Origin: Clostridiales bacterium
GTDB taxonomy: Bacteria > Bacillota > Clostridia > Oscillospirales > CAG-272
DNA: 40,666 nt
NCBI GenBank assembly: GCA_016280525.1
Contig: JAEEGW010000194.1
Span: forward strand, 1 to 40,666
Direction of reading: 5' to 3'
In this document: positions 3,518-25,278 of the stretch, piece by piece
Layout of the letters: each line of letters starts with the position of its first letter
Numbering within the stretch: the first letter of the stretch is position 1
Position numbers and translations under genes: made by a program
Notes under the pieces: model-generated
The model's database searches: none
The model's input: only the letters and a program-made list of their open reading frames with translations
Told to the model about the DNA's origin: nothing

Positions 3518-6148
3518 ATGAGCGGTTTTGTTATTGAAAACGGAGTTTTGAAAAAGTACACCGGAAAAGGCAAAGACGTCGTCATACCGGAAAGCGTAAC
3601 AAAAATAGGCGATAGTGCGTTCTTCAGCTGTAGCGGTCTTACAAGCATCACGATACCTGGCAGCGTAATGTCAATAGGAGATCAAGCGTTCAGCTATTGC
3701 AGAGGTCTTACAAACGTAACAATACCGGACAGTGTAATGAAAATAGGCGATGATGCATTCGCCGGTTGCAGCGGTCTTAAAAGCGTTACTATACCGGGCA
3801 GCGTAACGAAAATAGGCGATTGTGTTTTCGAATGCTGCAGCGGCCTTATGAATGTGACGATACCAAACAGTGTAATGAAAATAGGCAATAATGCGTTCCG
3901 CGAATGCCGCGCCCTTACAAACGTTACGATACCCGACGGCGTAATTTCAATAGGCAATAGTACGTTCTACGGCTGCAATGGTCTAACAAGCGTTACGATA
4001 TCCGACAGTGTAACGAAAATAGGCAAGAGTGCGTTCAGCTATTGCAACAACCTTACAAGCGTGACGATAGGTAACGGCGTAACGGAAATAGGCGATGGTG
4101 CGTTCAGCTGGTGCAGCGGCCTTACAAGCGTGACTATACCGGACGGTATAACGTCGATAGGTAAACAGGCGTTCTCCGGCTGCAGGGGTCTTACAAGCGT
4201 GACGATATCGGACAGCGTAACGTCAATAGGCGATTGTGCGTTCTCCGGCTGCAGCAGTCTTACAAGCGTAACGATACCTGGCAGCGTAATAAGAATAGGC
4301 GATTATGCGTTCTCCTCCTGCAGCGGTCTTACAAGCGTGACAATACCTGACGGTGTTACGGAAATAGGCGAGGGTACATTTTCTTGCAGCGGCCTTACAA
4401 GCGTGACTATACCGGACGGTATAACGTCGATAGGTAAACAGGCGTTCTCCGGCTGCAGGGGTCTTACAAGCGTGACGATACCGGACAGCGTAACATCAAT
4501 AGGCGATTGTGCGTTCTTCCGCTGCAGCGGTCTGACAAGCATCACTATACCTGGCGGCGTAACGGAAATAGGCGATGGTACGTTCTCCGACTGTAACGGC
4601 TTGACATATAACGAATATGACAATGGCTTGTACATCGGAAATTATAATAATAAATACTTTGTTTTAGTAAAGGCAAAAAACACATGGATAACATCGTGTA
4701 ATATACATAATTATACAAAATTCATACATTCTTTTGCGTTCAATGGATGCAACAGTTTTACAAGCGTGACGATACCGGATAGTGTAACGAAAATAGGAGA
4801 TGGGGTGTTCCACGGTTGTAGCGGTCTTACAAGCGTGACGGTCGGCAGCAGCGTCAAAACAATAGAATGGGGTGCGTTTGACGGCTGCGTCAATTTTAAA
4901 AACGTAATTCTGAAAAACGGAAAAGATCTGTTGTGGTTTGCAGAAAATAGCGGCAATTACGCTCCGCTCTGCTGTAACGCGACGGAAGAAGAGATGGCGG
5001 AGCTGATAAAAGCCGCCGCAAAATGGGACAAGGATAAAAAAGAGGCTTTTTACAATACGTATATGATAAGCGAAACGCGCGCCGCTATACTGCTTGCGGA
5101 AAAGCGGAAAGAAATGGAAGCTTACGCGGAGTTTCATAACACCACGGTCGACGATATGCGCGACAATATGCTCTCCGATCTCGGGCTTGACGAAGACGGC
5201 TGCAAGAAATACGATATCGGAAATATGACGGTAAACGTCAGAATGCTGCCCGACTTTACGTTCACGGTCGAGCTTCCGGACGGGAAAGCCTCAAAGTCGA
5301 TCCCCAAAAAAGGCGCAGATGAAAAGAAATACGAAGAGGCGAACAAGGACTTTTCTGAGATCAAAAAGAATGTCAAGAAGATATGGAAAAACCGCTCTGA
5401 CGTTATCCTGTCCGATTTCATAACCGGAAAAGAGCGTGAAGCGTCGTACTGGCGGAAAACGTATACGGACAACCCCGTACTTCGCGGAGTTGCAAGCCTT
5501 ATCGTCTGGGAACAGAACGGAGCGTATTTCACACAAACGGAAAAAGGACCCGTGTCATGCGACGGCGTGCCGTATGAACTTGGAGAAGGTACGATCAGTG
5601 TCGCTCATCCGCTTGAAATGACTTTGGATCAAATCGCTTCATGGCAGAAATATTTCACCGATCGCGCACTGAAACAGCCGTTTGCGCAGATCTGGGAGCT
5701 CGTACATAAACCGGAGGATATAAAGCCGGACAGATATAAAGACTGCCCGATACTGTTCTTTGCGCTGCAGGGCGCCGGAAAGCACGGCTTTGACGAAAAG
5801 CTTGAGATACCCGGCTGCAAGATCGAAACGAACTGGACTTCCGAAAAAGCGCCGAACGGCAATTCCGTAAGCTACTGCAATATCACAAGCTTCAAGATAG
5901 AAAAGTACAGCCGCGCCGTGAATCACGCGATAGCGTATCTCGACCGCACGACAGTTCTCGGACGTATAGCGAAAGACGATATCAGCGTCATGGATTATGT
6001 AAAAGGCTGCAATATAGCGCAGATCACGGATTATATCGATGCCGCGTCAAATGCGAAAGCCGTAAACGTCCTCGCCGCGCTTATGGAATACAAAAACAAA
6101 ACCTACCCCGACGTCGACCCGATGGCGGAATTTACACTTGAATGGTAA
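3518..6148 (+). CDS. Cytoplasmic BspA/TpLRR-type LRR protein fused to a DUF4132-like C-terminal domain
   Basis: 876 aa. About 19 repeats of 23 aa with consensus C.GLTSVTIPDSVTSIGD.AFSG. There is no N-terminal hydrophobic signal. The C-terminal ~400 aa contain SIPKKGADEKKY..LIVWEQNG..AHPLEM..WQKYF..KQPFAQIWE, the pattern I associate with DUF4132 (MolR/YehI type). The protein ends EYKNKTYPDVDPMAEFTLEW. Confidence 0.85.
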   Translation: MSGFVIENGVLKKYTGKGKDVVIPESVTKIGDSAFFSCSGLTSITIPGSVMSIGDQAFSYCRGLTNVTIPDSVMKIGDDAFAGCSGLKSVTIPGSVTKIGDCVFECCSGLMNVTIPNSVMKIGNNAFRECRALTNVTIPDGVISIGNSTFYGCNGLTSVTISDSVTKIGKSAFSYCNNLTSVTIGNGVTEIGDGAFSWCSGLTSVTIPDGITSIGKQAFSGCRGLTSVTISDSVTSIGDCAFSGCSSLTSVTIPGSVIRIGDYAFSSCSGLTSVTIPDGVTEIGEGTFSCSGLTSVTIPDGITSIGKQAFSGCRGLTSVTIPDSVTSIGDCAFFRCSGLTSITIPGGVTEIGDGTFSDCNGLTYNEYDNGLYIGNYNNKYFVLVKAKNTWITSCNIHNYTKFIHSFAFNGCNSFTSVTIPDSVTKIGDGVFHGCSGLTSVTVGSSVKTIEWGAFDGCVNFKNVILKNGKDLLWFAENSGNYAPLCCNATEEEMAELIKAAAKWDKDKKEAFYNTYMISETRAAILLAEKRKEMEAYAEFHNTTVDDMRDNMLSDLGLDEDGCKKYDIGNMTVNVRMLPDFTFTVELPDGKASKSIPKKGADEKKYEEANKDFSEIKKNVKKIWKNRSDVILSDFITGKEREASYWRKTYTDNPVLRGVASLIVWEQNGAYFTQTEKGPVSCDGVPYELGEGTISVAHPLEMTLDQIASWQKYFTDRALKQPFAQIWELVHKPEDIKPDRYKDCPILFFALQGAGKHGFDEKLEIPGCKIETNWTSEKAPNGNSVSYCNITSFKIEKYSRAVNHAIAYLDRTTVLGRIAKDDISVMDYVKGCNIAQITDYIDAASNAKAVNVLAALMEYKNKTYPDVDPMAEFTLEW
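4112..4252 (+). repeat. Intragenic direct repeat, copy 1 (273-bp register)
   Basis: 4112..4207 is identical (96/96 by eye) to 4385..4480. The next ~45 bp are near-identical. The offset is 273 bp, which is 91 codons or four LRR units minus one residue. Confidence 0.8.
4385..4525 (+). repeat. Intragenic direct repeat, copy 2
   Basis: See 4112..4252. The same sequence TGCAGCGGCCTTACAAGCGTGACTATACCGGACGGTATAACGTCGATAGGTAAACAGGCG... recurs here. Confidence 0.8.
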
Positions 6149-6161
6149 AGGAGAAAAGAAA

Positions 6162-6380
6162 ATGAATAACGACGGATGGAAAGCGGCGGCTTTTGACCGC
6201 GCGGGATACAACGGTATCCGTGAAGAACATATTGAAGCAGTTGCTGACGAGCTTGCGGCGACGGGATTGACGACGATAACGCGCGACGATTTTGACCGCG
6301 CCTGCCTGCGCTGCGGTATCGATGGCAGCAATTTCAAGCAGTCCGATCTTGACAGGCTGAAAGAACTACTTAATAAATAA
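6162..6380 (+). CDS. Small acidic hypothetical protein (72 aa)
   Basis: I prefer the ATG at 6162 over 6138 because it is preceded by AAAGGAGAAAAGAAA, the same RBS context as the next gene (GAGGAGAAAAGAAA before 6398). There is no recognisable domain. It is locally more GC-rich than its neighbours. Confidence 0.6.
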   Translation: MNNDGWKAAAFDRAGYNGIREEHIEAVADELAATGLTTITRDDFDRACLRCGIDGSNFKQSDLDRLKELLNK

Positions 6381-6397: not shown

Positions 6398-8761
6398 ATG
6401 AGTGATTTTGTAATTGAAAACGGAGTTTTAACTAGTTACAACGGCACCGATGCTGACGTGATCATACCTGATGGTGTTGCGGAGATAGGAAGATGGGCGT
6501 TTTCCGGATGCAGAAATCTTGTAAGCGTCACTATACCGGACAGCGTAAAAATACTTGATAATCAAGCATTTAGCGGATGTAGAGGGCTGACATTTAACGT
6601 TCCGAGCTTGAGTTTTCTCTTGAATCTGCCTTTTGATAAGACAGACCTTGAAAACGGTTTGGTATCTTCTGTCGTTATTCAAGGCGAACCGTTGAAAAAA
6701 ATTACGATTGATGTTAGTATCGATATCAGTGCAAAAAACGTAGCTCTGATTAAGGGTTTGCGCGGCGTAGAGGTCATTCTGGATGATTCCGCATGCGAAA
6801 CTGGAAAAGCGTTGCCGATTGATATTGTGAAGACAATAAAACCGACAGGCAAACAGCTTGCATATTTTTTGCTGTATCAATACGGAAAGAACTGGGAAGC
6901 ATTTTTATCGAAAATCGCTAATGATAATTATGTAAACACCTTAATGAAAAATTGCGTTGAGATTCTCAGTTCGCTGAAAAAGCTCTCGGAGAAGCAGGCG
7001 AATCAGGTAATCAAGACTGCTCTTTTGCATAGCGATCATATAGAAAAAGACGTATTATCGGATCTTTCTCGTGCATTGGCCGCATTAAGTCGAAAAAGCG
7101 ATGAGCTGGATAAATTGCTCGTAACCGATAATGACGAAAAATGTTCTGATACGGCGACAGAAAAGCTCGATCAGTTCACCGCTGCTTGCGATCAAAGTTC
7201 TGAAGATTACAAAGCCGCTGTAAGTATAGTCAAAAGTGGTTTCAAAATAAGAAACTCCGATAAGAATTCTTCTTTGAAATCGGCGGTGGCTTTAGTTTCC
7301 GGGTTTATAAAACTTTGGCGCGAATCACGTACCATCACATACGGAGAGATGTCTCAGGTGGAAATGCTGACTATGCACGACTTTGGGAAAAAAAGCGGGG
7401 CAAAATTCGCCTGCCATACGTATGACGATATCATAAATGAGCTGGATTATGAGGATTTTATCGCGTTTTTGAGAAAAAATATCGAAGGAAAGAATTATAG
7501 ATTTTTCCTGATTCCTTTCTGTACTTATGCGAATGAAAAGGATATAATCAGTTTTATTGCAGAGATACGAAGCGGAAAAAAAGGAAATGCTAAAAGTAAA
7601 TATAAAGCTATCAGTTCGGAAGTCGCAATGCTTTTAAGCGAAACAAAAGCAGCGGCAATGTACTTTGACAGTACCGGATTATTCGATGAGTACGCTTCGT
7701 TTCACGGCGTTGATCCGGAAGTTATGCGTATAAAACTACTTTATGATTTCGGTTTCGATGAAAACGGAGAGAAGATATATGATCTTGGTGACAAAACCGT
7801 CACTCTGAAATTGAATCGTGAACTCTCACTTTCTCTTTTTGACGGTGATAAAGAAGTTAAATCCGTACCGAAAAAAGGCAGCGATCCTGAAAAATATGAA
7901 ATTGCAAAAAAGGACTTTGCCGATATGAAAACAACCTTTAATAAGGTCGTGAAAAATGTAGTCAAACATTTACATCGTTGTTTTCTCTTGAATCAGTCAT
8001 ATTCAAAGGACGCATGGAAGAATCAGTTTTGCGTAAATCCCATGCTCAGATCCATCGCTCGGTTGATCGTGTGGAATCAAAACGGAAACACCTTTGTTCT
8101 CACCGATGAAGGTGCGTCAGATAATACCGGGGCGTCCGTTTCACTGACAGAAGATAAGATCATTTTTGCACATCCGATGGAAATGGAAAATGAAGAAGTA
8201 ACTGCCTGGCAAAAGTATCTTGTATCTCATATGCTTAAACAACCGTTTTGCCAAATGTGGGAACCGGTAGCAGACTTTCAGAATTTTAAGGAGAATCGCT
8301 ATGAGAATTGCGACATTCCTTTGTATCGGTTTGACAATCAATACGGCATCGAAACAGTAAAAGAAACGGAGTATGATTACCGTTCTGGAATTTATGTTTA
8401 TACACGTTATGACATTATACTCGATGACTGTAAGTTTGATTGGGAACCTGTCTCCGGTACCATTGAAAGCTTGAATAAACAATCTATAATCCGAATCAAA
8501 AGTATAAACTGTCTTAAAGTTACAAGGATGACAAATCACATTATATCATACCTTGATAAGTGTACCGTTTTCAGCAGGATCGGCAAAGATGACGTAACTG
8601 TTTTGGAAATATTGCCTTCTTATACCGCCGCTCAGCTTTTGGAATTTATCAAAGCCGCGGAAGAATCGCACGCGGTAAATGTCGCGGCTTTGTTGCTTGA
8701 ATACAAAAACAAAACGTATCCCGATTTTGATCCCATGGCGGAATTCACGCTTGAATGGTAA
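6398..8761 (+). CDS. Short-LRR / helical / DUF4132-like protein, a divergent paralogue of the 3518 and 23422 products
   Basis: 787 aa. The N-terminus MSDFVIENGVLTSYNGTDADVIIPDGVAEIG is followed by only ~2 LRR units and then a ~400-aa helical region. The same C-terminal core follows: SVPKKGSDPEKY..LIVWNQNG..AHPMEM..WQKYL..KQPFCQMWE. The tail is EYKNKTYPDFDPMAEFTLEW. Confidence 0.8.
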   Translation: MSDFVIENGVLTSYNGTDADVIIPDGVAEIGRWAFSGCRNLVSVTIPDSVKILDNQAFSGCRGLTFNVPSLSFLLNLPFDKTDLENGLVSSVVIQGEPLKKITIDVSIDISAKNVALIKGLRGVEVILDDSACETGKALPIDIVKTIKPTGKQLAYFLLYQYGKNWEAFLSKIANDNYVNTLMKNCVEILSSLKKLSEKQANQVIKTALLHSDHIEKDVLSDLSRALAALSRKSDELDKLLVTDNDEKCSDTATEKLDQFTAACDQSSEDYKAAVSIVKSGFKIRNSDKNSSLKSAVALVSGFIKLWRESRTITYGEMSQVEMLTMHDFGKKSGAKFACHTYDDIINELDYEDFIAFLRKNIEGKNYRFFLIPFCTYANEKDIISFIAEIRSGKKGNAKSKYKAISSEVAMLLSETKAAAMYFDSTGLFDEYASFHGVDPEVMRIKLLYDFGFDENGEKIYDLGDKTVTLKLNRELSLSLFDGDKEVKSVPKKGSDPEKYEIAKKDFADMKTTFNKVVKNVVKHLHRCFLLNQSYSKDAWKNQFCVNPMLRSIARLIVWNQNGNTFVLTDEGASDNTGASVSLTEDKIIFAHPMEMENEEVTAWQKYLVSHMLKQPFCQMWEPVADFQNFKENRYENCDIPLYRFDNQYGIETVKETEYDYRSGIYVYTRYDIILDDCKFDWEPVSGTIESLNKQSIIRIKSINCLKVTRMTNHIISYLDKCTVFSRIGKDDVTVLEILPSYTAAQLLEFIKAAEESHAVNVAALLLEYKNKTYPDFDPMAEFTLEW

Positions 8762-8770: not shown

Positions 8771-10144
8771 ATGACTGAAGAAGAAAAAACAAAACGGGCC
8801 GGTGAGATCGCAAAAGACGTGTTGAATTACGCCCGCAACTCGCTTCTTGTGAATATGCGTTTTCTCGATTCGGCGCTCAGCCGGCTCGGGCTTTTTCCCG
8901 CGGATACCGATATAACGCTCGGTACTGACGGAAAAAATCTGATATATCAGCCGATGCACGTTCTGAGACGTTTCAAAACGGGAAAAACCGTTATGACGCG
9001 TGATTATCTGCACGTCATTATGCACTGTATTTTCAGGCATATGTTCATAAACAGCCTGGTAAATCAGGCGGCGTGGGATCTTGCGTGCGATATAGCGGTA
9101 GAAAACGCGATATCCGGGCTCGGACTCAATACGGTTGAAACCGATGAATCGGGAAAACAAACCGCATTGTTTTCCGAATACGAAAAGAAAGCCGGCGGTA
9201 TCACCGCGGAGAGGGTATATAAGTACCTTATAGACAGCGGGTTTTCCGATGACGAGCTTGAGAAAAGACGTCAGTTCTTCAAAGCGGACGACCATTCGGT
9301 CTGGTATATGACCGACGAAGAAAAAGCGTCCGCCGGACTTCCGTCAAGCAGCGACGGTGAAAGCAAAGACGACAACGACGATGAAAATCAGGACGACGGC
9401 TCCGGCGCCGCCTACGGTTCGGAAGAAGACTGGAGGAGCATATCCGAGCACATACAGACCGACCTTGAGACGTTTCATTCACGTGGCGATACGGCAGGTA
9501 ATTTTATGCAGAACCTGCGCGAGCTGAACCGCGAAAAATACGATTATACGTCGTTTTTGAAAAAGTTTGCTGTGCTCGGTGAGGTGATGAAGATCAATCC
9601 TGAGGAATTCGATTACGTTTTCTATACATACGGTTTAAGGCTGTATGAAAAAATGCCGCTTATCGAACCGCTTGAATACAAAGACGTAAAGCGCATCAAG
9701 GATTTTGTTATCGCTATCGACACGTCCGGCTCGGTCGCCGGTGATCTTGTTCAGACGTTTTTGCAGAAAACGTTCAATATTTTAAAGTCAACGGAGAGTT
9801 TTTTCTCAAAAATAAACCTGTATATAATCCAGTGCGACGCGGCGATACAGGAAGCGTCAAAGATAACGACGCAACAGGAATTTGATGCGTATATCTCAAA
9901 TTTGACACTCAAAGGCTTCGGCGGCACGGATTTCCGCCCTGTTTTCGGTTACGTAAACTGGCTTATAGAAAAAAAGGAATTCACAAACCTCAAAGGACTT
10001 ATCTACTTCACGGACGGTTACGGCGTGTTCCCTGAAAAAAAGCCGTCGTATGAAACCGCATTCGTATTCATAGACGACGAATTCAACAACTACGACGTCC
10101 CGCCGTGGGCTATAAAGCTGATACTTAAAAAAGATGAAATATGA
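8771..10144 (+). CDS. VWA-domain protein with N-terminal DUF2201-type putative metallopeptidase-like domain (MoxR partner type)
   Basis: 457 aa. N-terminal LHVIMHCIFRH..WDLACDIAVEN resembles the DUF2201_N peptidase-like motif. An acidic linker follows (SSSDGESKDDNDDENQDDG). The C-terminal VWA domain has the MIDAS motif FVIAIDTSGSVAGD and later GGTDFRPVF..IYFTDGYG. Confidence 0.8.
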   Translation: MTEEEKTKRAGEIAKDVLNYARNSLLVNMRFLDSALSRLGLFPADTDITLGTDGKNLIYQPMHVLRRFKTGKTVMTRDYLHVIMHCIFRHMFINSLVNQAAWDLACDIAVENAISGLGLNTVETDESGKQTALFSEYEKKAGGITAERVYKYLIDSGFSDDELEKRRQFFKADDHSVWYMTDEEKASAGLPSSSDGESKDDNDDENQDDGSGAAYGSEEDWRSISEHIQTDLETFHSRGDTAGNFMQNLRELNREKYDYTSFLKKFAVLGEVMKINPEEFDYVFYTYGLRLYEKMPLIEPLEYKDVKRIKDFVIAIDTSGSVAGDLVQTFLQKTFNILKSTESFFSKINLYIIQCDAAIQEASKITTQQEFDAYISNLTLKGFGGTDFRPVFGYVNWLIEKKEFTNLKGLIYFTDGYGVFPEKKPSYETAFVFIDDEFNNYDVPPWAIKLILKKDEI

Positions 10145-10154
10145 GAGAAATATC

Positions 10155-10996
10155 ATGAGCATAAACGAAACAATAAAAGATTTTGTCGCCTTTGACCTTG
10201 AGACTACCGGGTTTTCACGCGAGTTCGACGGTATAACCCAGATCGGCGCGATACGCGTAAAAGACGGGAAAATAATGGCAGGCGAAAAAGACAGATTCAA
10301 CAAACTTGTTTATCAGGGCAACGGTTACGGCAGACGGATACCGCCGGACGTTGTTGCTCTTACGGGAATAACGAATGAAATGGTATCGCGCGCCGACCCG
10401 ATAGAAAAGGTTTTGCCGGAATTTCTTGAATTTGCAGGCGACGATATACTTGTCGGCTACAACTGTGACAGGTTCGACAGCAGCTTCCTGTACGCCGCGT
10501 GTAATCACTGCGGTATAACGATGAACAACAGATTCGTTGACGGCGTGTATCTTGCCAAAAAGTACATAAGATACAAAATGCCGGGCTGCCTGAAATATAA
10601 TCTCGGTCTGATAACCGATCTGCTCGGGCTAAAAACGAGGCGGCGCATAACGCGTATTACGACGCATACGTAACGGCGCAGGTTTATCTGCGACTTTGCG
10701 AGGAGAACATACCGGAGCCGGTATATGTAAACACAACGTATGTGCGAAATGAGAAAAACGTTGATATAAGGAACAAAGACGGCGTCAATCCCGGGATCGC
10801 TTCATATCTTGACAAAACCGTTGAAATGCTCTGGCAAATGTATCCTGACGGCGTTCTTCCCGATACGTTATTTACATTCAGCGACGAGACAGGAATAATC
10901 ATATACGAATTCCGCAAAAAAGTCAAAGCCGCGTACGGCATCAGACTTGAACAGTACCTCGCGCAATGCGGATTTACCTCGATCCCGTTGTCATGA
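10155..10996 (+). pseudogene. DnaQ/RNase T-type 3'-5' exonuclease interrupted by a -1 frameshift in an A5 tract (10631..10635)
   Basis: Frame 1 (track ORF 10134..10673; I prefer the ATG at 10155) carries ExoI FVAFDLETTG and ExoII LVGYNCDRFDSSFL. The ExoIII motif AHNAYYDAYVTAQVY is read only in the frame of track ORF 10742..10996. One extra A in CTAAAAACGAG would give ..LLGLKNEAAHNAYYDAY.. in a single frame. Confidence 0.7.
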
Positions 10997-11045
10997 CAAT
11001 ATTACATAACTAATAAAATTTCCAAAGATGAAAGGAATTAAAAAA

Positions 11046-11633
11046 ATGAGCGATTTTGTTATCGAAAACGAATTTGATGATTCTGAAATGGAATACAGAA
11101 AAGAACTGCTTTCCGAAGAACCCCTGAGAGACATTTTAAGTAGATTATGCGAAGAAAATGATGTGGAATTGCCGAGCAAACTGCGGATAACGTGTCCCGA
11201 AAATACAGATCCGGATAGTTTGGCAAAGCAAATAGTATCGGAAATCAAAACGATCATCAAGACTGCCGAACGTGGTATCAAAGCATCATTGAACGAAGGA
11301 AACGAACTGGATTTTTCATCTGGCGTTTTATATAATACCGAAAACAATAAGATATATATCAAAGTGTACGTATCATTTGAAGAATACGGCAAAGATGTAT
11401 GCTACCATGGCGATCTGGATGATCTGGATAAGAAAATAAATCAGATTCTGAAAAATAAATCTAAAGAATACCCAGGTTTGAAATATGAAGGTATTGTTTC
11501 ATGGAAGCAGTATTACGGCAGCGCATTAACATATTTCGGCCTCATAAAAAACACGAGGACAGATAAATATGCAAAAGAACTAATATTAAACGATGATGAA
11601 TTCTGGGAAGAATACGGCGATTTGTTAGAATAA
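11046..11633 (+). CDS. Hypothetical protein keeping only the MSDFVIEN N-terminus of the LRR family
   Basis: I chose the ATG at 11046 because its upstream GAAAGGAATTAAAAAAATG context duplicates that of the 11706 start. 195 aa, MSDFVIENEFDDSEMEY..., with no LRR units and no domain I recognise. Confidence 0.6.
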   Translation: MSDFVIENEFDDSEMEYRKELLSEEPLRDILSRLCEENDVELPSKLRITCPENTDPDSLAKQIVSEIKTIIKTAERGIKASLNEGNELDFSSGVLYNTENNKIYIKVYVSFEEYGKDVCYHGDLDDLDKKINQILKNKSKEYPGLKYEGIVSWKQYYGSALTYFGLIKNTRTDKYAKELILNDDEFWEEYGDLLE

Positions 11634-13553: not shown

Positions 13554-15059
13554 ATGAATATCAAGGAAGCAAAACAAGAGATCAAAAACGCGATGACGGC
13601 GTATTTTACAAAAAACGAATTCGGTGAATACGTTATTCCGGCTAACAGACAGCGCCCGGTATTTCTCATGGGCCCTCCCGGAATCGGAAAAACGGCGATA
13701 ATGGAGCAGATAGCGGAGGAACTCGGTGTCGGGCTTATCAGCTATTCCATGACGCATCACACGCGCCAGTCCGCGCTCGGTCTGCCGTTTATAGAAAAAA
13801 AGAATTACGGCGGCAAGGAATACGACGTTTCCGAATACACCATGTCGGAAATAATAGCGTCAGTTTATGATATGATGGAGGAAACGGGGCTTAAGGAGGG
13901 AATCCTGTTCCTTGACGAGATAAACTGCGTTTCCGAAACGCTGGCGCCCGTAATGCTGCAGTTTTTGCAGTACAAAATATTCGGAAAGCACAAAGTTCCG
14001 GACGGATGGATAATCGTCACCGCCGGAAACCCGCCGGAATATAACAATTCCGTGCGCGAATTCGACGTCGTGACGTGGGACAGGCTCAAGCGCATCGACG
14101 TAGAAGCCGATTACAACGCCTGGAGAGAGTACGCGCTGAACACGGGCGTTCATCCCGCCGTACTTACGTATCTCGATATAAAAAAGTCGAATTTCTATTC
14201 GATCGAAACGACGGTGGACGGCAAGAGCTTCGTAACCGCGCGCGGCTGGTCTGACCTTTCCGATATGATACGGCTTTACGAGCAAAACGGTATAAAACCG
14301 AATGAAAAGCTCATAGCTCAGTATCTGCAGAACAAGAAAATCGCAAAGGATTTTGCCATTTACTATGATCTTTTCGTAAAATACAGATCCGATTATCAGG
14401 TAGACACGATCTTATCCGGCAAAGCGGACGACGCGATAAGACAGAGAGCGAAAAACGCGAAATTTGACGAGAGACTCAGCCTGCTTGGCCTTTTGCTTGA
14501 CGGTATAAACGAGTATTTCAAAAACGTGTACAGAAGTGAACTCACGCTCACGGAGCTTTTGAATTCCCTGAAAAACGTCAGAATGGAACTCGGAAGAACG
14601 GGAGCGGACGCGGCGATAAGCAAACAGATAAAAGCGAGAAAAACCGAGCTGAGCGCCGGCAGAACAGCGTCAAACATCTCCGCGGACAAAATATACGCGT
14701 TAAATAAAGTCGTATCCGTTCTTGAAGACGATCTTGCCGCAATATCAAACGATCATCCCGCCTCGCCGGAAGACGCTTTCAAGCTGTTAAAAGAGGATTT
14801 TGACAAGCGCACAAAGGGTCTTAAAAAGCAGGCGGAAGAATCGGGTGAAAAACTGTCCAACGTATTCCGCTTCTGCGACGAAGCGTTTGCCGACGGGCAG
14901 GAACTGGTCATACTTGTAACGGAGCTGACGATAAACTATCACAGCGCGCACTTCATCTCCCGCTACGGCTGTAAAGAATACTTTGAGCATAACAAAGCTC
15001 TGCTCTTCTATGAGCGCCAGAAAGAAATAATCCAGAGCATAGAAGACCTGAAACTGTAA
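13554..15059 (+). CDS. MoxR-like AAA+ ATPase (AAA_5 type) with helical C-terminal extension
   Basis: 501 aa. Walker A VFLMGPPGIGKTAI, Walker B GILFLDEINC, then IVTAGNPPEYN and WDRLKRI, typical of the MoxR/dynein-related AAA_5 group. RBS ACGGAGAAAC. Confidence 0.85.
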   Translation: MNIKEAKQEIKNAMTAYFTKNEFGEYVIPANRQRPVFLMGPPGIGKTAIMEQIAEELGVGLISYSMTHHTRQSALGLPFIEKKNYGGKEYDVSEYTMSEIIASVYDMMEETGLKEGILFLDEINCVSETLAPVMLQFLQYKIFGKHKVPDGWIIVTAGNPPEYNNSVREFDVVTWDRLKRIDVEADYNAWREYALNTGVHPAVLTYLDIKKSNFYSIETTVDGKSFVTARGWSDLSDMIRLYEQNGIKPNEKLIAQYLQNKKIAKDFAIYYDLFVKYRSDYQVDTILSGKADDAIRQRAKNAKFDERLSLLGLLLDGINEYFKNVYRSELTLTELLNSLKNVRMELGRTGADAAISKQIKARKTELSAGRTASNISADKIYALNKVVSVLEDDLAAISNDHPASPEDAFKLLKEDFDKRTKGLKKQAEESGEKLSNVFRFCDEAFADGQELVILVTELTINYHSAHFISRYGCKEYFEHNKALLFYERQKEIIQSIEDLKL

Positions 15060-20906: not shown

Positions 20907-23325
20907 AAGCGTAACAACAATAGGCGCACGGGCATTTTCTGACTGTTGGAATCTTACTAACGTGACAATACCAGGCAGTGTAACGTCAATAGGAAGTTAT
21001 GCGTTCTTACGCTGCAGAAGTTTTTCAAACATGACTATACCAGACAGCATAACGTCAATTGCAGAGAGTGTGTTCTCCGAATGCAGCAGTCTTACAAGTG
21101 TGACCATACCGGGCGGAGTAACGGAAATAGGCAAAAATGCATTCCATGGCTGCAGCAAATTGATATATAATGAATATGATAATGCACTTTATTTGGGAAA
21201 TACGCATAATCCATATTATGCGTTAATTAAAGTAAAAAACAAGTCAAGAAAAATTGGTAATATAAATGAAAAAACAAGAATTATCGCAAGTGGAGCGTTT
21301 AACAACTGCAGCAGTCTTACAAGCATAATGATCCCCGACAGCGTGACCTCAATCGGCAATGAAGCGTTCCATAGCTGCGCAAGTCTGACAAGCATGACGA
21401 TCCCCGACAGTGTGACCTTGATCGGCAATAAAGCGTTCTATAGCTGCGCAAGTCTGACAAGCGTGACGATACCTGACAGCGTGACCTTAATCGGCAATGA
21501 AGCGTTCCATAGTTGCGCAAGCCTGAAAAGCGTGACGATACCGGATAGCGTAATATCAATAGGCATATCAGCATTTGAAAACTGCAGTGAATTGGATTAT
21601 AATGAATATGACAGTGCGCTTTATTTGGGAAATAAATATAATCCGTACCACGTTTTGATCAAAGGAATAAACGAGTCAATAAAAAGTGTTAATATAAACG
21701 AAAAAACAAAGGTCATTGCATGTGGTGCATTTTATAAATTCAACAGTCTTACCAGTATAACAATACCGGACGGCGTAACGTCAATAGGCGCTTATGCGTT
21801 TGATAGCTGCAGCGTTCTTGAAAGCGTGACTATAGGAAACGGTGTAAAGTCAATAGGCTATCGTGCATTGTGCAGCAGTCTTAAAAGCATAACTGTATCA
21901 GACAAAAAAGGTGTATATCATGCATCCGGCAACTGTCTTATAGAAACCGAGAGCAAAACGCTGATAAAAGGCTGCGAAAACAGTGTGATACCGAATGACG
22001 GCAGCGTAACATCAATAAGTGATAATGCATTTTTAGAATGCAATCTTAAAAATGTGACGATACCGGATAGCGTAACAAAGATTGGCGGTTGGGCGTTTTG
22101 CGGTTGCAGCAGTCTTACAAACATTACGATACCAGACAGTGTAACGTCAATAGGCGATTATGCGTTTTACTACTGCAGAAGTCTTACCAAAGTGACGATA
22201 CCGGGCAGTGTAACGTCAATAGGTTATGGCACGTTCGAAGAATGCAGTAACCTTACAAACGTTGATGCGTCTGAAGAGCAGTTCACGCTTGTGTGGAATA
22301 CGCTTGAACCAGATCAGAAAAATAATATTGCATACAATTGTTTGAAATTCGGTCAGACATATAACAAAGTCAAAGATTTTGTTAAGAGAAAAAAAGATGA
22401 TGTTTTAAACATAATAATCAAAGACGACGACGTTAAAGAGTTTGAATCATATTTACTGATGCTCAAAAAGCCGGACGTCGGGGCACTTGACGAATATCTT
22501 GAAAAATCGCAGAATACCATCAATATCAAAGCGTATCTTCTCGATTATAAAGCAAAAAATTTTTCAAGAGTACAAACCGAAGAATACTACGACGATCAGA
22601 CCGAAAAGGAGCTCGGATTTAAAGAACGTACATTATCGGATTGGCGAAAGATTTTCAAAATAACCGATAAAGACGGCAAAAGATATATCAGCGGCTATAG
22701 AGCTGATGATCCGACGGTGGTAATTCCCTCGGACATCGCGGGCAAGCCCGTATACGGTATAGCAGACAAGGCGTTTAAAAAATGCACAACCCTGACAAGT
22801 GTGATGATAGAGGACGGCGTAAAGTCAATAGGCGCTTGGGCGTTCGCCGGTTGCAGCAGTCTTACAAGCGTGACGATACCGAAAAGCATGACTTCAATAG
22901 ACTCCCTTGCGTTTGACGATTGTATCAGACTTAAAAGAGTTTACATAACCGATATTGCAAAATGGTGTGAGATAAGTTACTCTAATAATATATCAAATCC
23001 GTTGATTATTGCTCATAACCTGTATTTAAACAACGAATTGATGACTGATCTTGCTATACCGGACAGCGTGACGAAAATAGGCGAGAGTGCGTTCGACGGT
23101 TGCAAGAGTCTTACAAGCGTGATAATACCGGATAGCGTGACTAATATTGGTGATTATGCGTTCTATAACTGCAGAAATTTAACAAGCGTGACTATACCGG
23201 ATAGCGTAATATCAATAGGTGACAAAACGTTTTCCCGATGCAAATCGCTTAAAATATGCGCATCTGCAGGGTCATATGCCGATAAATACGCTAAGAAGAA
23301 TAAGATTCCTTTTGAGGCAATTTGA
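20764..23325 (+). CDS. Cytoplasmic LRR - helical spacer - LRR protein (853 aa)
   Basis: The start overlaps the SIR2 stop (TAATG). The N-terminus is MSDFVIENRVLIKYTGKDSDVVIPDGVTSIS. LRR arrays flank the same helical module as in the 11706 product (ASEEQFTLVW..AYLLDYKAKNFS..RYISGYRADDPTVVIPSDIAGKPVYGIADKAF). Confidence 0.85.
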   Translation: MSDFVIENRVLIKYTGKDSDVVIPDGVTSISWRAFEGCSSLTSVTIPESVTTIGARAFSDCWNLTNVTIPGSVTSIGSYAFLRCRSFSNMTIPDSITSIAESVFSECSSLTSVTIPGGVTEIGKNAFHGCSKLIYNEYDNALYLGNTHNPYYALIKVKNKSRKIGNINEKTRIIASGAFNNCSSLTSIMIPDSVTSIGNEAFHSCASLTSMTIPDSVTLIGNKAFYSCASLTSVTIPDSVTLIGNEAFHSCASLKSVTIPDSVISIGISAFENCSELDYNEYDSALYLGNKYNPYHVLIKGINESIKSVNINEKTKVIACGAFYKFNSLTSITIPDGVTSIGAYAFDSCSVLESVTIGNGVKSIGYRALCSSLKSITVSDKKGVYHASGNCLIETESKTLIKGCENSVIPNDGSVTSISDNAFLECNLKNVTIPDSVTKIGGWAFCGCSSLTNITIPDSVTSIGDYAFYYCRSLTKVTIPGSVTSIGYGTFEECSNLTNVDASEEQFTLVWNTLEPDQKNNIAYNCLKFGQTYNKVKDFVKRKKDDVLNIIIKDDDVKEFESYLLMLKKPDVGALDEYLEKSQNTINIKAYLLDYKAKNFSRVQTEEYYDDQTEKELGFKERTLSDWRKIFKITDKDGKRYISGYRADDPTVVIPSDIAGKPVYGIADKAFKKCTTLTSVMIEDGVKSIGAWAFAGCSSLTSVTIPKSMTSIDSLAFDDCIRLKRVYITDIAKWCEISYSNNISNPLIIAHNLYLNNELMTDLAIPDSVTKIGESAFDGCKSLTSVIIPDSVTNIGDYAFYNCRNLTSVTIPDSVISIGDKTFSRCKSLKICASAGSYADKYAKKNKIPFEAI
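21307..21513 (+). repeat. Three near-identical tandem 69-bp units (one LRR each)
   Basis: Units 21307-21375, 21376-21444 and 21445-21513 encode C(S/A)SLTS(I/M/V)(M/T)IPDSVT(S/L)IGN(E/K)AF(H/Y)S. The nucleotides are nearly identical between units. Confidence 0.8.
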
Positions 23326-23349
23326 TTGAAGAGCAAATAATGTATAAAT

Positions 23350-23564
23350 CAAAAAAATAAAAGCCGCGGACTATAAAGATTTCTATAAAGCCGCTGCGGA
23401 ATACGTAAGGAGGATAAAATAATGAGTGATTTTGTAATTGAAAACGGAGTTTTGATCAAGTACACGGGAAAAGATTCAGACGTCGTAATTCCCGACGGCG
23501 TAACGTCAATAAGCTGGCGTGCGTTCGAAGGCTGCAGTAGTCTTACAAGCGTGACGATACCGGA
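23350..23564 (+). repeat. 215-bp direct repeat, copy 2 (orphan SIR2 3' fragment + 5' end of LRR-DUF4132 gene)
   Basis: It carries a non-functional copy of the last ~22 SIR2 codons (KIKAADYKDFYKAAAEYVRRIK*), including the TAATG junction with the 23422 start. Confidence 0.85.
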
Positions 23565-25278
23565 TAGCGTAACGAAAATAGGTAACGAGGTGTTCTGGGG
23601 TTGTAGGAACCTTTCTAACATGGCAATAGGAAACGGAGTAACGGAAATAGGTGATTCTAAGTTCTCTTATTATACCGGTCTTAAGAGCGTTATATTGTCG
23701 GACAGTATTACATCTATTGGCAATCGTGCGTTCGAAGGCTGCAGCAGTCTTACAAGTGTGACGATACCGGATAGCGTAATAACAATAGGCAAAGAAGCGT
23801 TCTGGGGTTGCAGCAGCCTCACAAAAGTAACGATAGGAAGCGGTGTAACAGAAATAGGTGATTCTGCGTTCTCTCATTGCAGCAGTCTTAAGAGCGTTAC
23901 GATACCGAACAGCGTAATGAAAATAGGCGGCGCTGCCTTTTTCGGTTGCCGCAGTCTTACAAACGTAACGATAGGAAACGGGGCAGTGATAATAGGTTAC
24001 TCTGCATTCAAAGGATGCAATAAGCTTGAAAGCATAACTTTACCAGAGAGCAAAAATCTGTCAAGGTTGGCTGAAGAGTGTAATGATTACGATCCGCTCT
24101 GTCGTGCTGCAACTGAAGAGCAAATGGCGGAGCTTATAAAAGCGGTGGCAAAATGGGACAGATATAATAAAGAAGCCTTTTATGTATCATATATGATAAG
24201 CGACACACGCGCGGCGATACTGCTTGCGGAAAAGCGAAAGGAACTTGATAAATACGCGGATATGCGCGGGATGACGGCGGATGAGGTGCGTGACAGACTG
24301 CTTTCAGATTTCGGACTTGACGCCGATGGATGTAAAGAATATGACCTCGGAAACACCGTAGTGAAAGTCAAAATGCTGCCCGATTTCACGTTTGCTGTGG
24401 ATCTGCCGGACGGCAAGATCTCAAAATCGCTGCCGAAAAAAGGCGCAGATGAGAAAAAGTTCAAAGAAGCGGATAAAGATTTTTCGGAAATGAAGAAAAA
24501 CGTGAAAAAGGTTTGGAAAAACCGTTCCGATCTGCTGTTATCCGATTTTGTGAGCGGTAAAAAACGCGCCGCGTCTTATTGGAAAAAGACTTACACGGGC
24601 AACCCGGTGCTTCGCGGCGTAGCAAAGCTTATAGTATGGGAGCAGAACGGCAAATACTTCACACTCGCTGACGGCGGTACGATCGGATCGGACGGTTCTC
24701 CGTATGAACTTACAAAAGAATCAGTCCGTTTGGCACACCCGTTGGAAATGAGCAAAGACGATGTCACGTCGTGGCAGAAATACTATACCGATCGCGGACT
24801 CAAACAGCCGTTTGCACAGATATGGGAGCCCGTACATAAGCCTGAGAATATAAAGTCTGACAGATATAAAAATTGTCCGATACTGTTCTTTGCGCTGCAG
24901 GGAGCGACAAAACACGGCTTTAATGAGAAACTTAACATCCCCGGATGCACGATCAAAACGGAATGGAAATCAGAAAAAGCGGCAAACGGTAATTCGGTGA
25001 GTTATTGCAATATTCTTGATTTCAATATTGAAAAATACAGCCGCGCCGTAAATCACGCCGTCGCATATCTCGACCGCACGACAGTTCTCGGACGTATCGC
25101 AAAGGACGATTTAAGCGTGATGGATTACGTTGAAGGCAGCAATATCGCGCAGATCACCGACTATATCGAAGCCGCGTCAAACGCAAAAGCAGTAAACGTT
25201 CTCGCCGCTCTTATGGAATACAAAAACAAAACTTACCCCGATTTCGATCCCATGGCGGAATTCACACTTGAATGGTAA
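23422..25278 (+). CDS. Cytoplasmic LRR protein fused to a DUF4132-like C-terminal domain (close paralogue of the 3518 product)
   Basis: 618 aa with ~8 LRR units. The C-terminal ~410 aa are highly similar to the 3518 product over its length (my rough estimate is three quarters or more identical): LPKKGADEKKF..LIVWEQNG..AHPLEM..WQKYY..KQPFAQIWE..EYKNKTYPDFDPMAEFTLEW. Confidence 0.85.
   Translation: MSDFVIENGVLIKYTGKDSDVVIPDGVTSISWRAFEGCSSLTSVTIPDSVTKIGNEVFWGCRNLSNMAIGNGVTEIGDSKFSYYTGLKSVILSDSITSIGNRAFEGCSSLTSVTIPDSVITIGKEAFWGCSSLTKVTIGSGVTEIGDSAFSHCSSLKSVTIPNSVMKIGGAAFFGCRSLTNVTIGNGAVIIGYSAFKGCNKLESITLPESKNLSRLAEECNDYDPLCRAATEEQMAELIKAVAKWDRYNKEAFYVSYMISDTRAAILLAEKRKELDKYADMRGMTADEVRDRLLSDFGLDADGCKEYDLGNTVVKVKMLPDFTFAVDLPDGKISKSLPKKGADEKKFKEADKDFSEMKKNVKKVWKNRSDLLLSDFVSGKKRAASYWKKTYTGNPVLRGVAKLIVWEQNGKYFTLADGGTIGSDGSPYELTKESVRLAHPLEMSKDDVTSWQKYYTDRGLKQPFAQIWEPVHKPENIKSDRYKNCPILFFALQGATKHGFNEKLNIPGCTIKTEWKSEKAANGNSVSYCNILDFNIEKYSRAVNHAVAYLDRTTVLGRIAKDDLSVMDYVEGSNIAQITDYIEAASNAKAVNVLAALMEYKNKTYPDFDPMAEFTLEW

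Follow-up and report, generated by a model that had tools for sequence, protein, structure and literature searches.

What might be the function of a gene run in which LRR proteins, several of them with a DUF4132 domain, accompany a VWA protein, an AAA+ ATPase and a SIR2 protein? In the window, by which we mean the whole 40,666-nt stretch of DNA that was analysed (Table 1), the arrangement of these genes is far beyond chance. The cluster is cargo of a 35-kb integrative mobilizable island inserted in tRNA-Pro, and the candidate conflict module fills 22-28 of these 35 kb, the bulk of the island. The earlier proposal of a mobile element is borne out by the att repeats (96% identical over their 52 nt), the tRNA-Pro gene, the MobL relaxase and the integrases, all of which are present. 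A Cheo/LexA-type box (CGAACATATGTTC) overlaps the backbone promoter at 31557..31604; upstream of the cargo operon, inspection of the leader sequence revealed no LexA box.

Table 1. Features of the window and of the island it contains.
Feature	Position	Strand	Basis or remark
Source DNA, contig JAEEGW010000194.1 (GCA_016280525.1)	1-40,666	forward	gut or rumen Clostridia host
attL, copy of tRNA-Pro 3' part, left end of island	2815..2866	.	52-nt direct repeat, family D18
Promoter-like site, TTGTAA-16-TATAAT with TG	3433..3460	+	consensus scan only
LRR_5 + C-terminal DUF4132 protein, 876 aa, ~16 repeats of 23 aa	3518..6148	+	Pfam, repeat map
Conserved small ORF, ~72 aa, after LRR-DUF4132 gene	6162..6380	+	comparison with L002
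LRR N-terminal cap + one LRR unit + C-terminal DUF4132, 787 aa	6398..8761	+	Pfam, repeat map
VWA protein: DUF2201_N zincin-like + DUF2201 VWA	8771..10144	+	Pfam
DEDDh (RNase_T) exonuclease gene, split	10134..10996	+	Pfam, tblastn
201-aa protein, no family assigned	11028..11633	+	profile searches
LRR_5-only cytoplasmic protein, 577 aa	11706..13439	+	Pfam
AAA+ ATPase, AAA_5 type, possibly MoxR-like	13554..15059	+	Pfam
Giant LRR_5 protein, 1612 aa	15072..19910	+	stop codon overlaps SIR2 start
Stand-alone SIR2/AbiH-like NADase-type protein, 285 aa	19907..20764	+	Pfam, model
LRR_5-only protein, 853 aa	20764..23325	+	Pfam
LRR_5 + DUF4132 protein, 618 aa, conserved tail DPMAEFTLEW	23422..25278	+	Pfam
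DUF1351 + DEDDh exonuclease fusion, 444 aa	25305..26639	+	recurs in related islands
RNA polymerase alpha-CTD-like helix-hairpin-helix protein, 281 aa	26643..27488	+	
SbcD	27412-28644	+	Pfam Metallophos+SbcD_C
SbcC	28641-31406	+	Pfam AAA_23+SbcC_Walker_B
Strong bidirectional intrinsic terminator, 14-bp stem, end of cargo unit	31483..31517	+	first strong one in run
Consensus sigma-70 promoter (TTGACA-17-TATAAT), head of backbone operon	31557..31604	+	
Island backbone: 310-aa protein, HTH_36 protein, 141-aa protein, MobL relaxase, two tyrosine integrases	31635..37732	+	
MobL relaxase	34024-35130	+	
Two tyrosine integrases	35154-36362, 36329-37732	+	
tRNA-Pro(CGG), 3' part = attR	37861..37943	-	attR repeat 37861-37912

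All eleven open reading frames listed in the sequence-only reading lie on the plus strand exactly where it had placed them. The gaps of 0-115 bp that it described are joined by two larger ones. One of these (6148-6398) contains the conserved small ORF (the ORF finder's start is TTG 6138), which is about 75% identical to two 70-aa ORFs following the LRR-DUF4132 genes of a syntenic relative, L002; the other (10673-11028) contains the 3' part of the DEDDh exonuclease gene, shifted out of frame. Relative to L002, this gene has a 1-nt deletion at about position 10631, its ORF 10134-10673 is without motif III, and in tblastn the L002 orthologue matches the window in frames 1 and 3, with 95% and 99% identity. 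Both this ORF and 11028-11633, whose N-terminus MSDFVIEN copies an LRR-gene N-terminus, sit within the run and were missing from the earlier list. The co-transcribed unit probably extends past 25278 to 31406, which would add the DUF1351-exonuclease, the alpha-CTD protein and SbcCD; the sole basis for a single operon is the absence of strong terminator-like sites before 31483. The promoter-like site upstream of the first cargo gene lies within an AT-rich leader of 650 bp. Pfam supports the assignments made before, namely LRR_5, DUF4132, DUF2201_N plus DUF2201, AAA/AAA_5 and SIR2_2, and since no signal peptide or transmembrane segment was detected in the cluster proteins (maximal 19-residue Kyte-Doolittle mean 1.52), the label 'cytoplasmic' is reasonable as well.

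Of the DUF4132 proteins, the first (3518-6148) matches LRR_5 with an E-value of 7e-195 and DUF4132 with 1e-22, the second (6398-8761) matches DUF4132 with 2.5e-23 and a single LRR_5 unit with 1e-9, about 400 residues in its middle being without assignment, and the third (23422-25278) matches DUF4132 with 2.4e-25. For the C-terminal 354 residues of the latter, a structure was predicted with a pLDDT of 88.6, for which no structural neighbour was found. Compared with L002, the enzymes of the window are 70-95% identical, whereas the LRR-only genes, with 30-41% identity (41% for 11706-13439) and differing lengths, diverge far faster. The 5' ends of 20764-23325 and 23422-25278 are 96% identical over 250 nt (family D7), and such near-identical 5' cassettes (families D5, D7 and D8) point to recombination.

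The VWA protein matches DUF2201_N (3.8e-11), DUF2201 VWA-like (2e-12) and PHROG 1314 (3e-40). Its MIDAS is intact (D317, S319, S321, T386, D415), the DTSGS...T...D residues being invariant across 20 homologues; its zincin-like domain, with H-V-I-M-H, belongs to a clade that has lost the catalytic Glu, and is predicted to be catalytically dead. The ATPase carries Walker A (GPPGIGKT), Walker B (ILFLDE) and TAGNP motifs and, at its C-terminus, a conserved helical region of about 200 residues, and matches AAA (37 bits), AAA_5 (32.4 bits, cut-off 22) and PHROG 1297 (4e-41). Its former label 'MoxR-type' is supported as far as AAA_5 is concerned, but MoxR membership is marginal (bpMoxR 27.2 bits, cut-off 27).

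The SIR2 protein scores 30.4 bits against SIR2_2 (cut-off 24.5) and 27.7 bits against AbiH, under the cut-off of 30.9. A Foldseek search with its predicted structure (pLDDT 95) returned exclusively ThsA, KomC, DSR2 or Avs5 among the top 50 matches, ThsA being the best (6e-9), followed by KomC, DSR2 and Avs5, and in its motifs TTN96Y and H147-I-H149-G the residues N96, H147 and H149 are invariant in homologues; the model shows an immune-type fold in which the catalytic Asn and His are kept. Its start and stop codons overlap both flanking LRR genes, to which it is predicted to be translationally coupled, and L002 has the same order, LRR-SIR2-LRR, with enzymes that are 70-82% identical. Elsewhere, members of this clade frequently occur as solitary genes or stand in unrelated contexts, some of them paired with a Metallophos and SMC-like couple. 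By its gene neighbourhoods, the SIR2 seems to be a portable AbiH-like effector that this locus has recruited.

How general is this composition? The VWA family has more than 8000 matches, and among gut and rumen Clostridia the module is present in no fewer than 593 GTDB species-representative genomes; in line with the earlier proposal, the gene set co-occurs in other genomes, with the same partners and, in relatives, the same gene order. Of 74 loci in a VWA-seeded survey, 51 have AAA downstream of VWA, and 13 of those without it break off less than 3 kb after VWA; LRR genes adjoin VWA in 43 loci, and between VWA and AAA their count ranges from 0 to 6. The conserved unit is [LRR]n-VWA-[LRR]0-6-AAA-[LRR]n. 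DUF4132 is present in five of the 74 loci and SIR2 in one, plus two further loci; therefore, the fixed chain of sensor, DUF4132/VWA/MoxR switch and SIR2 effector that had been envisaged is not the general design. When the survey was seeded with DUF4132, VWA or AAA was found in 25 of the 41 loci with a length of 8 kb or more, and directly beside 35 of 92 DUF4132 genes, 44 of the 92 being at contig ends: this DUF4132 clade usually adjoins VWA or AAA, yet a minority of modules carry DUF4132.

The accessory genes vary in a similar manner. SIR2 lies in LRR/VWA/DUF4132 operons of the window, L002, L008, L052, L102, L127 and L149, HEPN_Swt1 within the operon of L005, TIR_2 in two loci, Macro in two loci and PARP in L102. 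SIR2 is an occasional, swappable accessory, other loci having TIR, HEPN, Macro or PARP genes, and is therefore not an obligate effector; both the effector and the nuclease genes are accessory to the module rather than constant parts of it. Near most modules, consisting of VWA-AAA with 0 or 1 LRR, no recognisable toxic effector was found. The SbcCD pair recurs in L074, L098, L105, L133 and L169, and SbcC has LmuB as its best PADLOC model (79 bits); larger relatives of the alpha-CTD protein bear two to three alpha-CTD domains and sigma-70 region 4. At least three kinds of mobile-element backbone bear the module: MobL with tyrosine integrases, as in the window; ImmA, VapE and ParB_N with a serine recombinase; and a conjugative element, which bears LRR and DUF4132 genes only. 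About 10% of flanking genes are of defence type (WYL, type IV restriction, GajB-like, PD-T4-6), a modest share given without a control set.

These surveys establish the composition, conservation, variability and mobile-element location of a VWA, AAA+ and LRR module that is widespread and undescribed: we found no literature on this composition and, as the sequence-only reading had expected, PADLOC matches no system to it. MoxR-vWA pairs have been predicted to regulate conflict systems whose effectors vary and whose third component is a sensor (PMC7159879), and Lamassu shows that DNA-end sensors derived from SbcCD can drive effectors, Sir2 among them (PMC12663957). We tentatively consider an anti-phage or anti-mobile-element conflict system the most probable role of the module, a reading to which we give somewhat less than even odds. 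In such a system, the LRR arrays would be interchangeable binders of invader proteins, and the VWA MIDAS site would grip an acidic peptide in a partner with LRR or DUF4132; the conserved disordered tail ...DPMAEFTLEW is a candidate for this peptide. The AAA+ ring, using ATP, would then remodel or release the complex of VWA and partner and thereby license the effector encoded at the given locus. In the window this effector would be the stand-alone SIR2 NADase; judging from ThsA, KomC and Avs5, it could be activated by oligomerisation, deplete NAD+ and abort the infection. SbcCD, the DEDDh exonucleases and the DUF1351 protein, probably transcribed in the same unit, may either sense or destroy foreign DNA ends.

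Could the module serve the element against its recipients instead? The LRR set would then bind immune or restriction proteins of recipients, VWA and AAA+ would unfold or sequester them, and the exonucleases, SbcCD and the DUF1351 protein would protect or process incoming element DNA during establishment. Location on mobilizable, integrative and conjugative backbones, with so large a share of the island, fits this equally well, diversifying binders are equally expected for anti-defence, and most modules are without a toxic effector; moreover, jumbo phages carry remote AAA-VWA pairs, and a conjugative-plasmid region that has many small ORFs, an addiction toxin and an orphan cytosine methyltransferase also encodes a remote homologue of the VWA protein. 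However, self-toxic effectors within operons (SIR2 NADase, TIR, HEPN) are typical of abortive infection rather than anti-defence, the family is nearly absent from IMG/VR viral contigs (3 loci), and many modules sit beside ordinary chromosomal genes with no element backbone visible within 10 kb. A defence role is tentatively favoured for this candidate, counter-defence being the less probable of the two.

About as improbable, in our estimate, is a mere juxtaposition of independent units: VWA-AAA-LRR, possibly with a role outside conflict such as that of a chaperone in LRR-scaffold assembly, a solitary AbiH-like SIR2, and a module of the element for recombination or DNA-end processing by the DUF1351-exonuclease and SbcCD. 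Maturation chaperones are the classic role of MoxR-VWA pairs, in keeping with such a scenario. Because SIR2 occurs in a few percent of loci, and its homologues are often solitary or have unrelated partners such as the Metallophos and SMC-like couple, it may simply have inserted among LRR genes as an independent gene of AbiH type; a precedent is AbiH, a sirtuin-like Abi that consists of one gene and is frequent on integrative conjugative elements (PMC13064643), and fewer than half of the VWA loci have SbcCD, DUF1351 and exonucleases within 10 kb. Against this stand the codon overlaps of SIR2 and its conserved place in L002, the recurrence of SIR2, SbcCD and the DUF1351-exonuclease in LRR/VWA/DUF4132 islands in several independent arrangements, and the lack of a strong terminator between the units in the window. 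Least probable is a DNA-damage or DNA-break response of the element, in which DUF4132 and partners would sense lesions and control repair or excision as in E. coli yeh/molR: it draws on the BRCT, HIRAN, PARP, Macro, SNF2 and UvrD-PD-(D/E)xK genes that related islands carry with SbcCD, on the backbone LexA-type box, and on DUF4132 being fused to or beside WGR in other bacteria, in damage-induced genes (PMC8533742), as well as on yehF, but it leaves the diversifying LRR set and the NADase, TIR and HEPN genes unexplained, a LexA box was not found ahead of the cargo operon, and immune systems such as Lamassu use the same DNA-end-sensing domains.

How does the favoured candidate, a conflict system, compare with known ones? 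The E. coli cluster yehF-yehH(molR)-yehI-yehK-yehL-yehM-yehP-yehQ does combine WGR, DUF4132, MoxR and VWA, in agreement with the association of the last three given in the sequence-only reading, and likewise places DUF4132 proteins beside an AAA+ ATPase and a VWA protein. This likeness holds at the family level for DUF4132, the window's region being homologous to YehI (hhalign 97.8%, E 7.6e-13), but the VWA and ATPase are from other families and not specific relatives of YehP and YehL; furthermore, yeh is chromosomal and has WGR, SWIM and YehM but no LRR, whereas the window has none of the former three. The MoxR-vWA ternary systems (Kaur, Burroughs, Iyer, Aravind 2020, eLife; PMC7159879), predicted to be diversifying and tightly regulated, share the AAA+/vWA pair with a variable presumed sensor and variable effectors. 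Here, however, VMAP, iSTAND, FtsH or a beta-propeller is replaced as third component by one or more stand-alone LRR_5 proteins with or without DUF4132, the VWA is of the DUF2201 type with a presumably dead zincin, MoxR-clade membership is marginal, effectors are separate genes instead of fusions, and the loci lie on mobile elements of unicellular gut Clostridia. Lamassu (LmuA-LmuB-LmuC, including Sir2 types), which derives from SbcCD and senses DNA ends (PMC12663957), resembles the window in joining a Rad50/SbcC-like ATPase to a SIR2 effector, with matches to LmuB and to the LmuA effector domain; unlike in Lamassu, the window's SIR2 has just 285 residues without the LmuA C-terminal domain, its SbcD is a full Mre11-type nuclease, and the two are 6.6 kb and four genes apart.

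With the defence sirtuins (AbiH, KomC of Kongming, and the SIR2 domains of ThsA, DSR2 and Avs5), the SIR2 protein shares fold and catalytic Asn/His and, with KomC or AbiH, its size; it differs in being predicted to be coupled in translation to the LRR genes between which it lies, without a ThsB, KomA/KomB, HerA or STAND partner. The BspA-type surface adhesins of Firmicutes and Bacteroidota are built from the same LRR_5 family of 23-aa units, but the LRR proteins described here are without signal peptide, lipobox, anchor or transmembrane segment, and their genes are operonic with cytoplasmic enzymes. Finally, the LRRs of eukaryotic NLRs are ligand binders, and the logic of repeat-domain sensor, NTPase switch and effector in NLR/Avs-type STAND receptors is like that proposed for the module; here, however, the ATPase falls outside the STAND NTPases, separate polypeptides would serve as sensor, switch and effector, and each locus holds many sensor paralogues.

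What does the gene run at the centre of the contig encode? Every ORF listed by the sequence-only reading was recovered at its stated position on the forward strand, and Pfam bears out most of its domain calls: LRR_5 together with DUF4132 in the first and third DUF4132 genes, LRR_5 in all three LRR-only genes, a DUF2201_N plus DUF2201 VWA-like domain in the VWA protein, and SIR2_2 over its threshold in the SIR2 protein, where AbiH falls slightly under its own. DUF4132 is matched at E values of 1e-22 to 2e-25 across the proteins that carry it; in the second of these it stands, whereas the LRR part of the call shrinks to a single LRR unit. All six LRR proteins begin with a common motif, MSDFVIENGVL.KY.G, and their description as cytoplasmic holds, with neither a signal peptide nor a membrane segment in any protein; the BspA-type surface features sought (secretion signal, hydrophobic N-terminus, transmembrane anchor) are absent from the window LRR proteins.

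Positions of genes and other features in the window (forward-strand coordinates)
Feature	Position	Remark
GAAC-N4-GTTC box	1047-1058	left of attL
Copy of backbone gene start	1076-1160	resembles 31624-31708
Degenerate tRNA-3'-like repeat	1246-1297	
HTH_3 repressor-like gene	1413-2513	
attL	2815-2866	left copy of direct repeat
First DUF4132 gene	3518-6148	LRR-DUF4132
Small acidic ORF, conserved	6162-6380	~72 aa; directly after first LRR-DUF4132 gene
Second DUF4132 gene	6398-8761	
VWA gene	8771-10144	
DEDDh exonuclease gene, split	10134-10996	1-nt deletion at ~10631 beside A5 run, relative to L002 orthologue
201-aa protein gene	11028-11633	
First LRR-only gene	11706-13439	
AAA gene	13554-15059	
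Second LRR-only gene	15072-19910	
SIR2 gene	19907-20764	
Third LRR-only gene	20764-23325	
250-nt direct repeat	20675-20924 / 23333-23582	
Third DUF4132 gene	23422-25278	LRR-DUF4132
DUF1351-DEDDh exonuclease fusion gene		additional cargo gene
Alpha-CTD-like helix-hairpin-helix protein gene	26643-27488	additional cargo gene; 281 aa
SbcD gene	27412-28644	additional cargo gene; bona fide SbcD/SbcC pair
SbcC gene	28641-31406	additional cargo gene
Terminator	31483-31517	
Sigma-70 promoter	31557-31604	perfect TTGACA-17-TATAAT; heads backbone operon (310-aa protein, HTH_36, MobL, integrases)
LexA box	31592-31604	
Tandem tyrosine integrase genes	35154-37732	overlapping
attR	37861-37912	right copy of direct repeat
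tRNA-Pro(CGG)	37867-37943	
Dockerin + SASA-type esterase genes	38104-40666	host flank

The statement that neighbouring genes are separated by gaps of 0-115 bp needs two exceptions, of 249 bp past 6148 and 354 bp past 10673. The first contains the small acidic ORF, which matches no family and is present in two copies in the related locus L002, after its LRR-DUF4132 genes. The second is the remaining out-of-frame portion of the DEDDh exonuclease gene, whose deletion leaves a 179-aa product that lacks motif III. The independent sample L090 shows this split too, and the gene could be a true pseudogene, contain a slippery site or owe its split to misassembly. The 201-aa protein that follows opens with the LRR-gene motif MSDFVIEN, then diverges and matches no known family, which suggests a chimeric gene formed by recombination at a shared 5' cassette.

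In the VWA protein the MIDAS residues D317, S319, S321, T386 and D415 are invariant, and its profile has no match among PDB sequences. HExxH, a zincin motif, is present in distant homologues from jumbo phages and a conjugative plasmid but is replaced by H[V/I/A]xxH in the window clade; judged from this substitution, the VWA protein is very probably inactive as a peptidase, and we have set aside an active metallopeptidase as the effector. The ATPase conserves Walker A, Walker B, a TAGNP sensor and a C-terminal region of ~200 aa. Pfam assigns it to AAA and AAA_5, the latter at 32.4 bits (cut-off 22) over the full model, while bpMoxR is reached at 27.2 bits (cut-off 27), leaving its proposed placement in the MoxR clade marginal; nSTAND3 matches at 18 bits, under its cut-off of 27.2, over the P-loop only. 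The PDB, searched with both its profile and the single sequence, likewise gave matches confined to the P-loop region, with midasin as the best. The DUF4132 region corresponds by homology to the C-terminal portion of YehI (E. coli) and was modelled with pLDDT 88.6 and pTM 0.83; with no Foldseek match at E < 0.001 in either the PDB or BFVD, the predicted fold is apparently novel. Its conserved, disordered tail (...DPMAEFTLEW) may be a candidate ligand of the MIDAS or of the ATPase pore.

The model of the SIR2 protein (pLDDT 95) has the SIR2 Rossmann-like fold, and the top 50 Foldseek matches are all ThsA, KomC, DSR2 or Avs5 (best E 6e-9, TM ~0.6). All 47 homologues keep the catalytic Asn N96 (TTNY) and the HxHG histidines H147 and H149. 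The modelled protein thus shares both fold and catalytic residues with anti-phage NADases, and NAD+ hydrolysis on activation is predicted. The start and stop codons of its gene overlap the neighbouring LRR genes. Homologues with ~40% identity are often solitary or placed in other contexts, and the protein fits a portable AbiH-like effector (compare PMC13064643). In three other loci (L099-L101, e.g. L099:1362-6877), a SIR2 homologue (36% identity) forms a tight operon with a Metallophos protein (Mre11/SbcD-like) and an SMC_N/AAA_23 protein (Rad50-like), standing opposite a BRCT gene; this trio may represent a separate, Lamassu-like system that is uncatalogued.

How widely does this gene set recur? 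The VWA family has >8000 matches at E < 1e-10, mainly from gut and rumen metagenomes. At least 593 species-representative genomes carry it, spread over Oscillospiraceae, Ruminococcaceae, Acutalibacteraceae, Lachnospiraceae, Mogibacterium and other groups, and it is nearly missing from IMG/VR (3 loci). Labelling 80 genome loci with profiles built from the window proteins revealed a core operon of the form [LRR]n-VWA-[LRR]0-6-AAA-[LRR]n. The AAA gene lies downstream of the VWA gene and co-oriented with it in 51 of 74 loci, 13 of the remainder being truncated, and LRR genes adjoin the VWA gene in 43 of the 74. DUF4132 is present in 5 of the 74 and SIR2 in 1, plus two further loci. The window order is kept in L002-L004, three loci whose VWA is 70% identical to that of the window (Sel1, two LRR-DUF4132, VWA, exonuclease, LRR, AAA, LRR, SIR2, LRR-DUF4132). 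Seeding with the DUF4132 region instead, and counting loci of at least 8 kb (n=41), gave 33 LRR-DUF4132 fusions, with a VWA or AAA gene in 25 of the 41 loci and DUF1351-exonuclease, alpha-CTD proteins, SbcCD and SIR2 seen repeatedly.

Beyond this core, composition varies. Other members add UvrD-PD-(D/E)xK, WYL, HEPN_Swt1, HIRAN, BRCT, PARP, TIR_2, Macro or SNF2 domains; a minority of operons encode SIR2, TIR_2, HEPN_Swt1, Macro or PARP as genes of their own, and most have none of them. The mobile backbones also differ, with ImmA/M78, VapE, ParB_N and a serine recombinase in loci of the L160 type and MobL with tyrosine integrases in the window; in L097, where relaxase and coupling protein mark a conjugative element, only the LRR and DUF4132 genes are present. 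By Pfam censuses the immediate flanks are highly heterogeneous, with many housekeeping genes and about one in ten of defence type, and BLAST clustering of 380 unlabelled neighbours found no family in >7 loci. Two further protein types were seen among the loci. Proteins of 900-1000 aa with two to three RNA polymerase alpha-CTD domains and a sigma-70 region 4 (L116:21-5842, L118, L119, L105:15669-18803, L005:17255-20155) often precede a 402-aa protein and an SNF2 helicase, and the alpha-CTD protein of the window looks like a short relative of them. Directly upstream of the AAA gene, L007, L010, L011, L023, L084, L098 and L116 (e.g. L116:14517-14981) encode a ~155-aa protein with a weak DUF4760 match (30 bits), which is absent from the window.

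The LRR-only genes diverge far more than the enzymes: compared with L002, the latter are 70-95% identical, whereas the former retain 30-41% identity and vary in length. Within the window, the 250-nt direct repeat (96% identity) spans the 5' ends of two LRR genes together with the sequence upstream of each, and the 3' kilobases of the first and third DUF4132 genes are 71-87% identical. On sequence grounds, these likenesses indicate that gene conversion or an exchange of cassettes has recently taken place among the LRR paralogues, and the shared 5' cassettes argue for recombination among these genes.

The proposal of a mobile island is well founded. Repeats of 52 nt (96% identity) copy the 3' part of tRNA-Pro(CGG), the sole structured RNA found with Rfam, and immediately inside the right one lie a MobL relaxase and two tyrosine integrases; the cluster therefore rides on a 35-kb island with all the defining features of an integrative mobilizable element, mating-pair genes being absent. 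The two integrase genes, at the island end, are 71% identical over 127 nt near their 5' ends. A prophage origin, suspected from the HTH_3 gene, DUF1351 and PHROG matches, was rejected: the HTH_3 gene falls beyond attL, MobL and integrases are present on the island while virion genes are not, and the occurrence of the VWA family on just 3 IMG/VR contigs also disfavours it. The sole strong terminator within the island directly follows SbcC, and we infer two transcription units, a cargo of 3518-31406 and a backbone of 31635-37732. The core drawn by the sequence-only reading, which ends at 25278, would thus extend to 31406 and take in genes left outside it. A Cheo/LexA-type box, CGAACATATGTTC, overlaps the backbone promoter, whose spacer holds a further near-copy of it, so that the backbone is probably under SOS control and excision and mobilisation of the island may be SOS-induced; no such box was seen upstream of the cargo operon. 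To the left of attL, the copy of the backbone gene start (85% identity) is preceded by the GAAC-N4-GTTC box and followed by the degenerate repeat, and the region 1047-1297 resembles what an older, related island at this site would have left behind. The two paralogous esterase genes in the host flank (74-78% nucleotide identity) suggest that the host makes a cellulosome, and since such a dockerin-bearing carbohydrate esterase lies beyond the right end of the island, the host is probably a cellulolytic, Ruminococcus-like Clostridium. The window takes up a whole NCBI contig of 40,666 bp.

What, then, is the physiological role of the cluster? Our comparisons support a conserved functional unit in which the VWA protein and the AAA+ ATPase are joined by diversifying cytoplasmic LRR proteins. 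DUF4132 is a frequent yet optional C-terminal module of some of these LRR proteins, and effectors (NAD-linked or RNase) and enzymes acting on DNA ends may be added. The fixed chain of LRR, DUF4132/VWA/MoxR and SIR2 first proposed is too specific, as SIR2 and DUF4132 are missing from most modules. The signature of a conflict system is seen here, in that NTPase and co-factor are invariant, the repeat proteins hypervariable and the toxic effectors swappable, on mobile elements; we rate the cluster as an NTPase-regulated, repeat-sensor conflict system with an unusual multi-gene LRR repertoire. Defence is the role we tentatively favour because SIR2, TIR and HEPN are self-toxic abortive-infection effectors; mechanistic steps past composition, conservation and fold we infer. 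Counter-defence by the mobile element is an unlikely alternative: the module does travel on such elements, and the effectors that point to defence accompany a minority of operons. Juxtaposition of independent units appears just as improbable; the solitary SIR2 homologues would accord with it, the overlap of the SIR2 start and stop codons with the flanking LRR genes would not. A DNA-damage role, for which the BRCT, HIRAN, PARP and SbcCD genes of related islands might speak, is very unlikely, as it leaves the diversifying LRR set unexplained. Returning to defence, it is conceivable, if rather doubtful, that the module represents an unrecognised immune class on mobile elements of gut and rumen Clostridia, in which recombination-diversified, free-standing cytoplasmic LRR receptors would be serviced by an AAA+/VWA machine, with DUF4132 as adaptor and exchangeable SIR2, TIR, HEPN or nuclease effectors. 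If so, AAA+/VWA remodelling would be tied to NADase activation, and a module spread over hundreds of Clostridia species from gut and rumen, though mentioned in no defence catalogue or paper we found, would bear on phage and plasmid dynamics in the gut microbiome. DUF4132, which E. coli has too, would gain a role, as would the DUF2201-type VWA and AAA+ pairs, known also from plasmids and jumbo phages.

Among known systems, PADLOC profiles gave no system-level match, and searches of the literature on DUF4132, DUF2201, vWA-MoxR, yeh and LRR-MoxR/BspA brought up no description of a system of this composition, as had been supposed. Thoeris is rejected, with no TIR (ThsB) or SLOG match in the window. 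The SbcCD and SIR2 side echoes Lamassu (PMC12663957), and SbcC scores 79 bits against LmuB (PADLOC); Pfam assigns it to SbcC (AAA_23 + SbcC_Walker_B), and its partner is a true SbcD. LmuA joins an effector to a C-terminal LmuB/C-binding domain and adjoins LmuB, whereas the SIR2 protein has 285 aa, covers only positions 20-181 of the 433-position LmuA model and is encoded 6.6 kb upstream of SbcD; membership thus fails on LmuA architecture and adjacency. The parallel drawn with the E. coli yeh cluster survives for DUF4132 (YehI, hhalign 97.8%, E 7.6e-13, 302 columns), but not for the ATPase, which aligns with YehL at Walker A only (E 0.16), or the VWA protein (YehP, hhalign probability 0.7%), and the yeh partners WGR, SWIM (YehQ) and YehM have no Pfam match among the window proteins. 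Our reading, if true, would nevertheless provide a first way into the function of DUF4132 and of the orphan yeh/molR cluster. The module also echoes predicted MoxR-vWA ternary systems (PMC7159879). As in those of Kaur et al., an adjacent vWA with intact MIDAS is present; unlike them, the window proteins include no VMAP, inactive STAND, FtsH or beta-propeller third component, the recurrent third component being LRR_5 with or without DUF4132. STAND/NLR-like systems (Avs, bNACHT) are rejected as well, since no STAND NTPase is fused to repeats and the LRRs are separate proteins. Should our reading hold, LRR recognition in bacteria would proceed through many separate receptor genes per locus, an organisation closer to eukaryotic receptor repertoires than to the known fused bacterial sensors.
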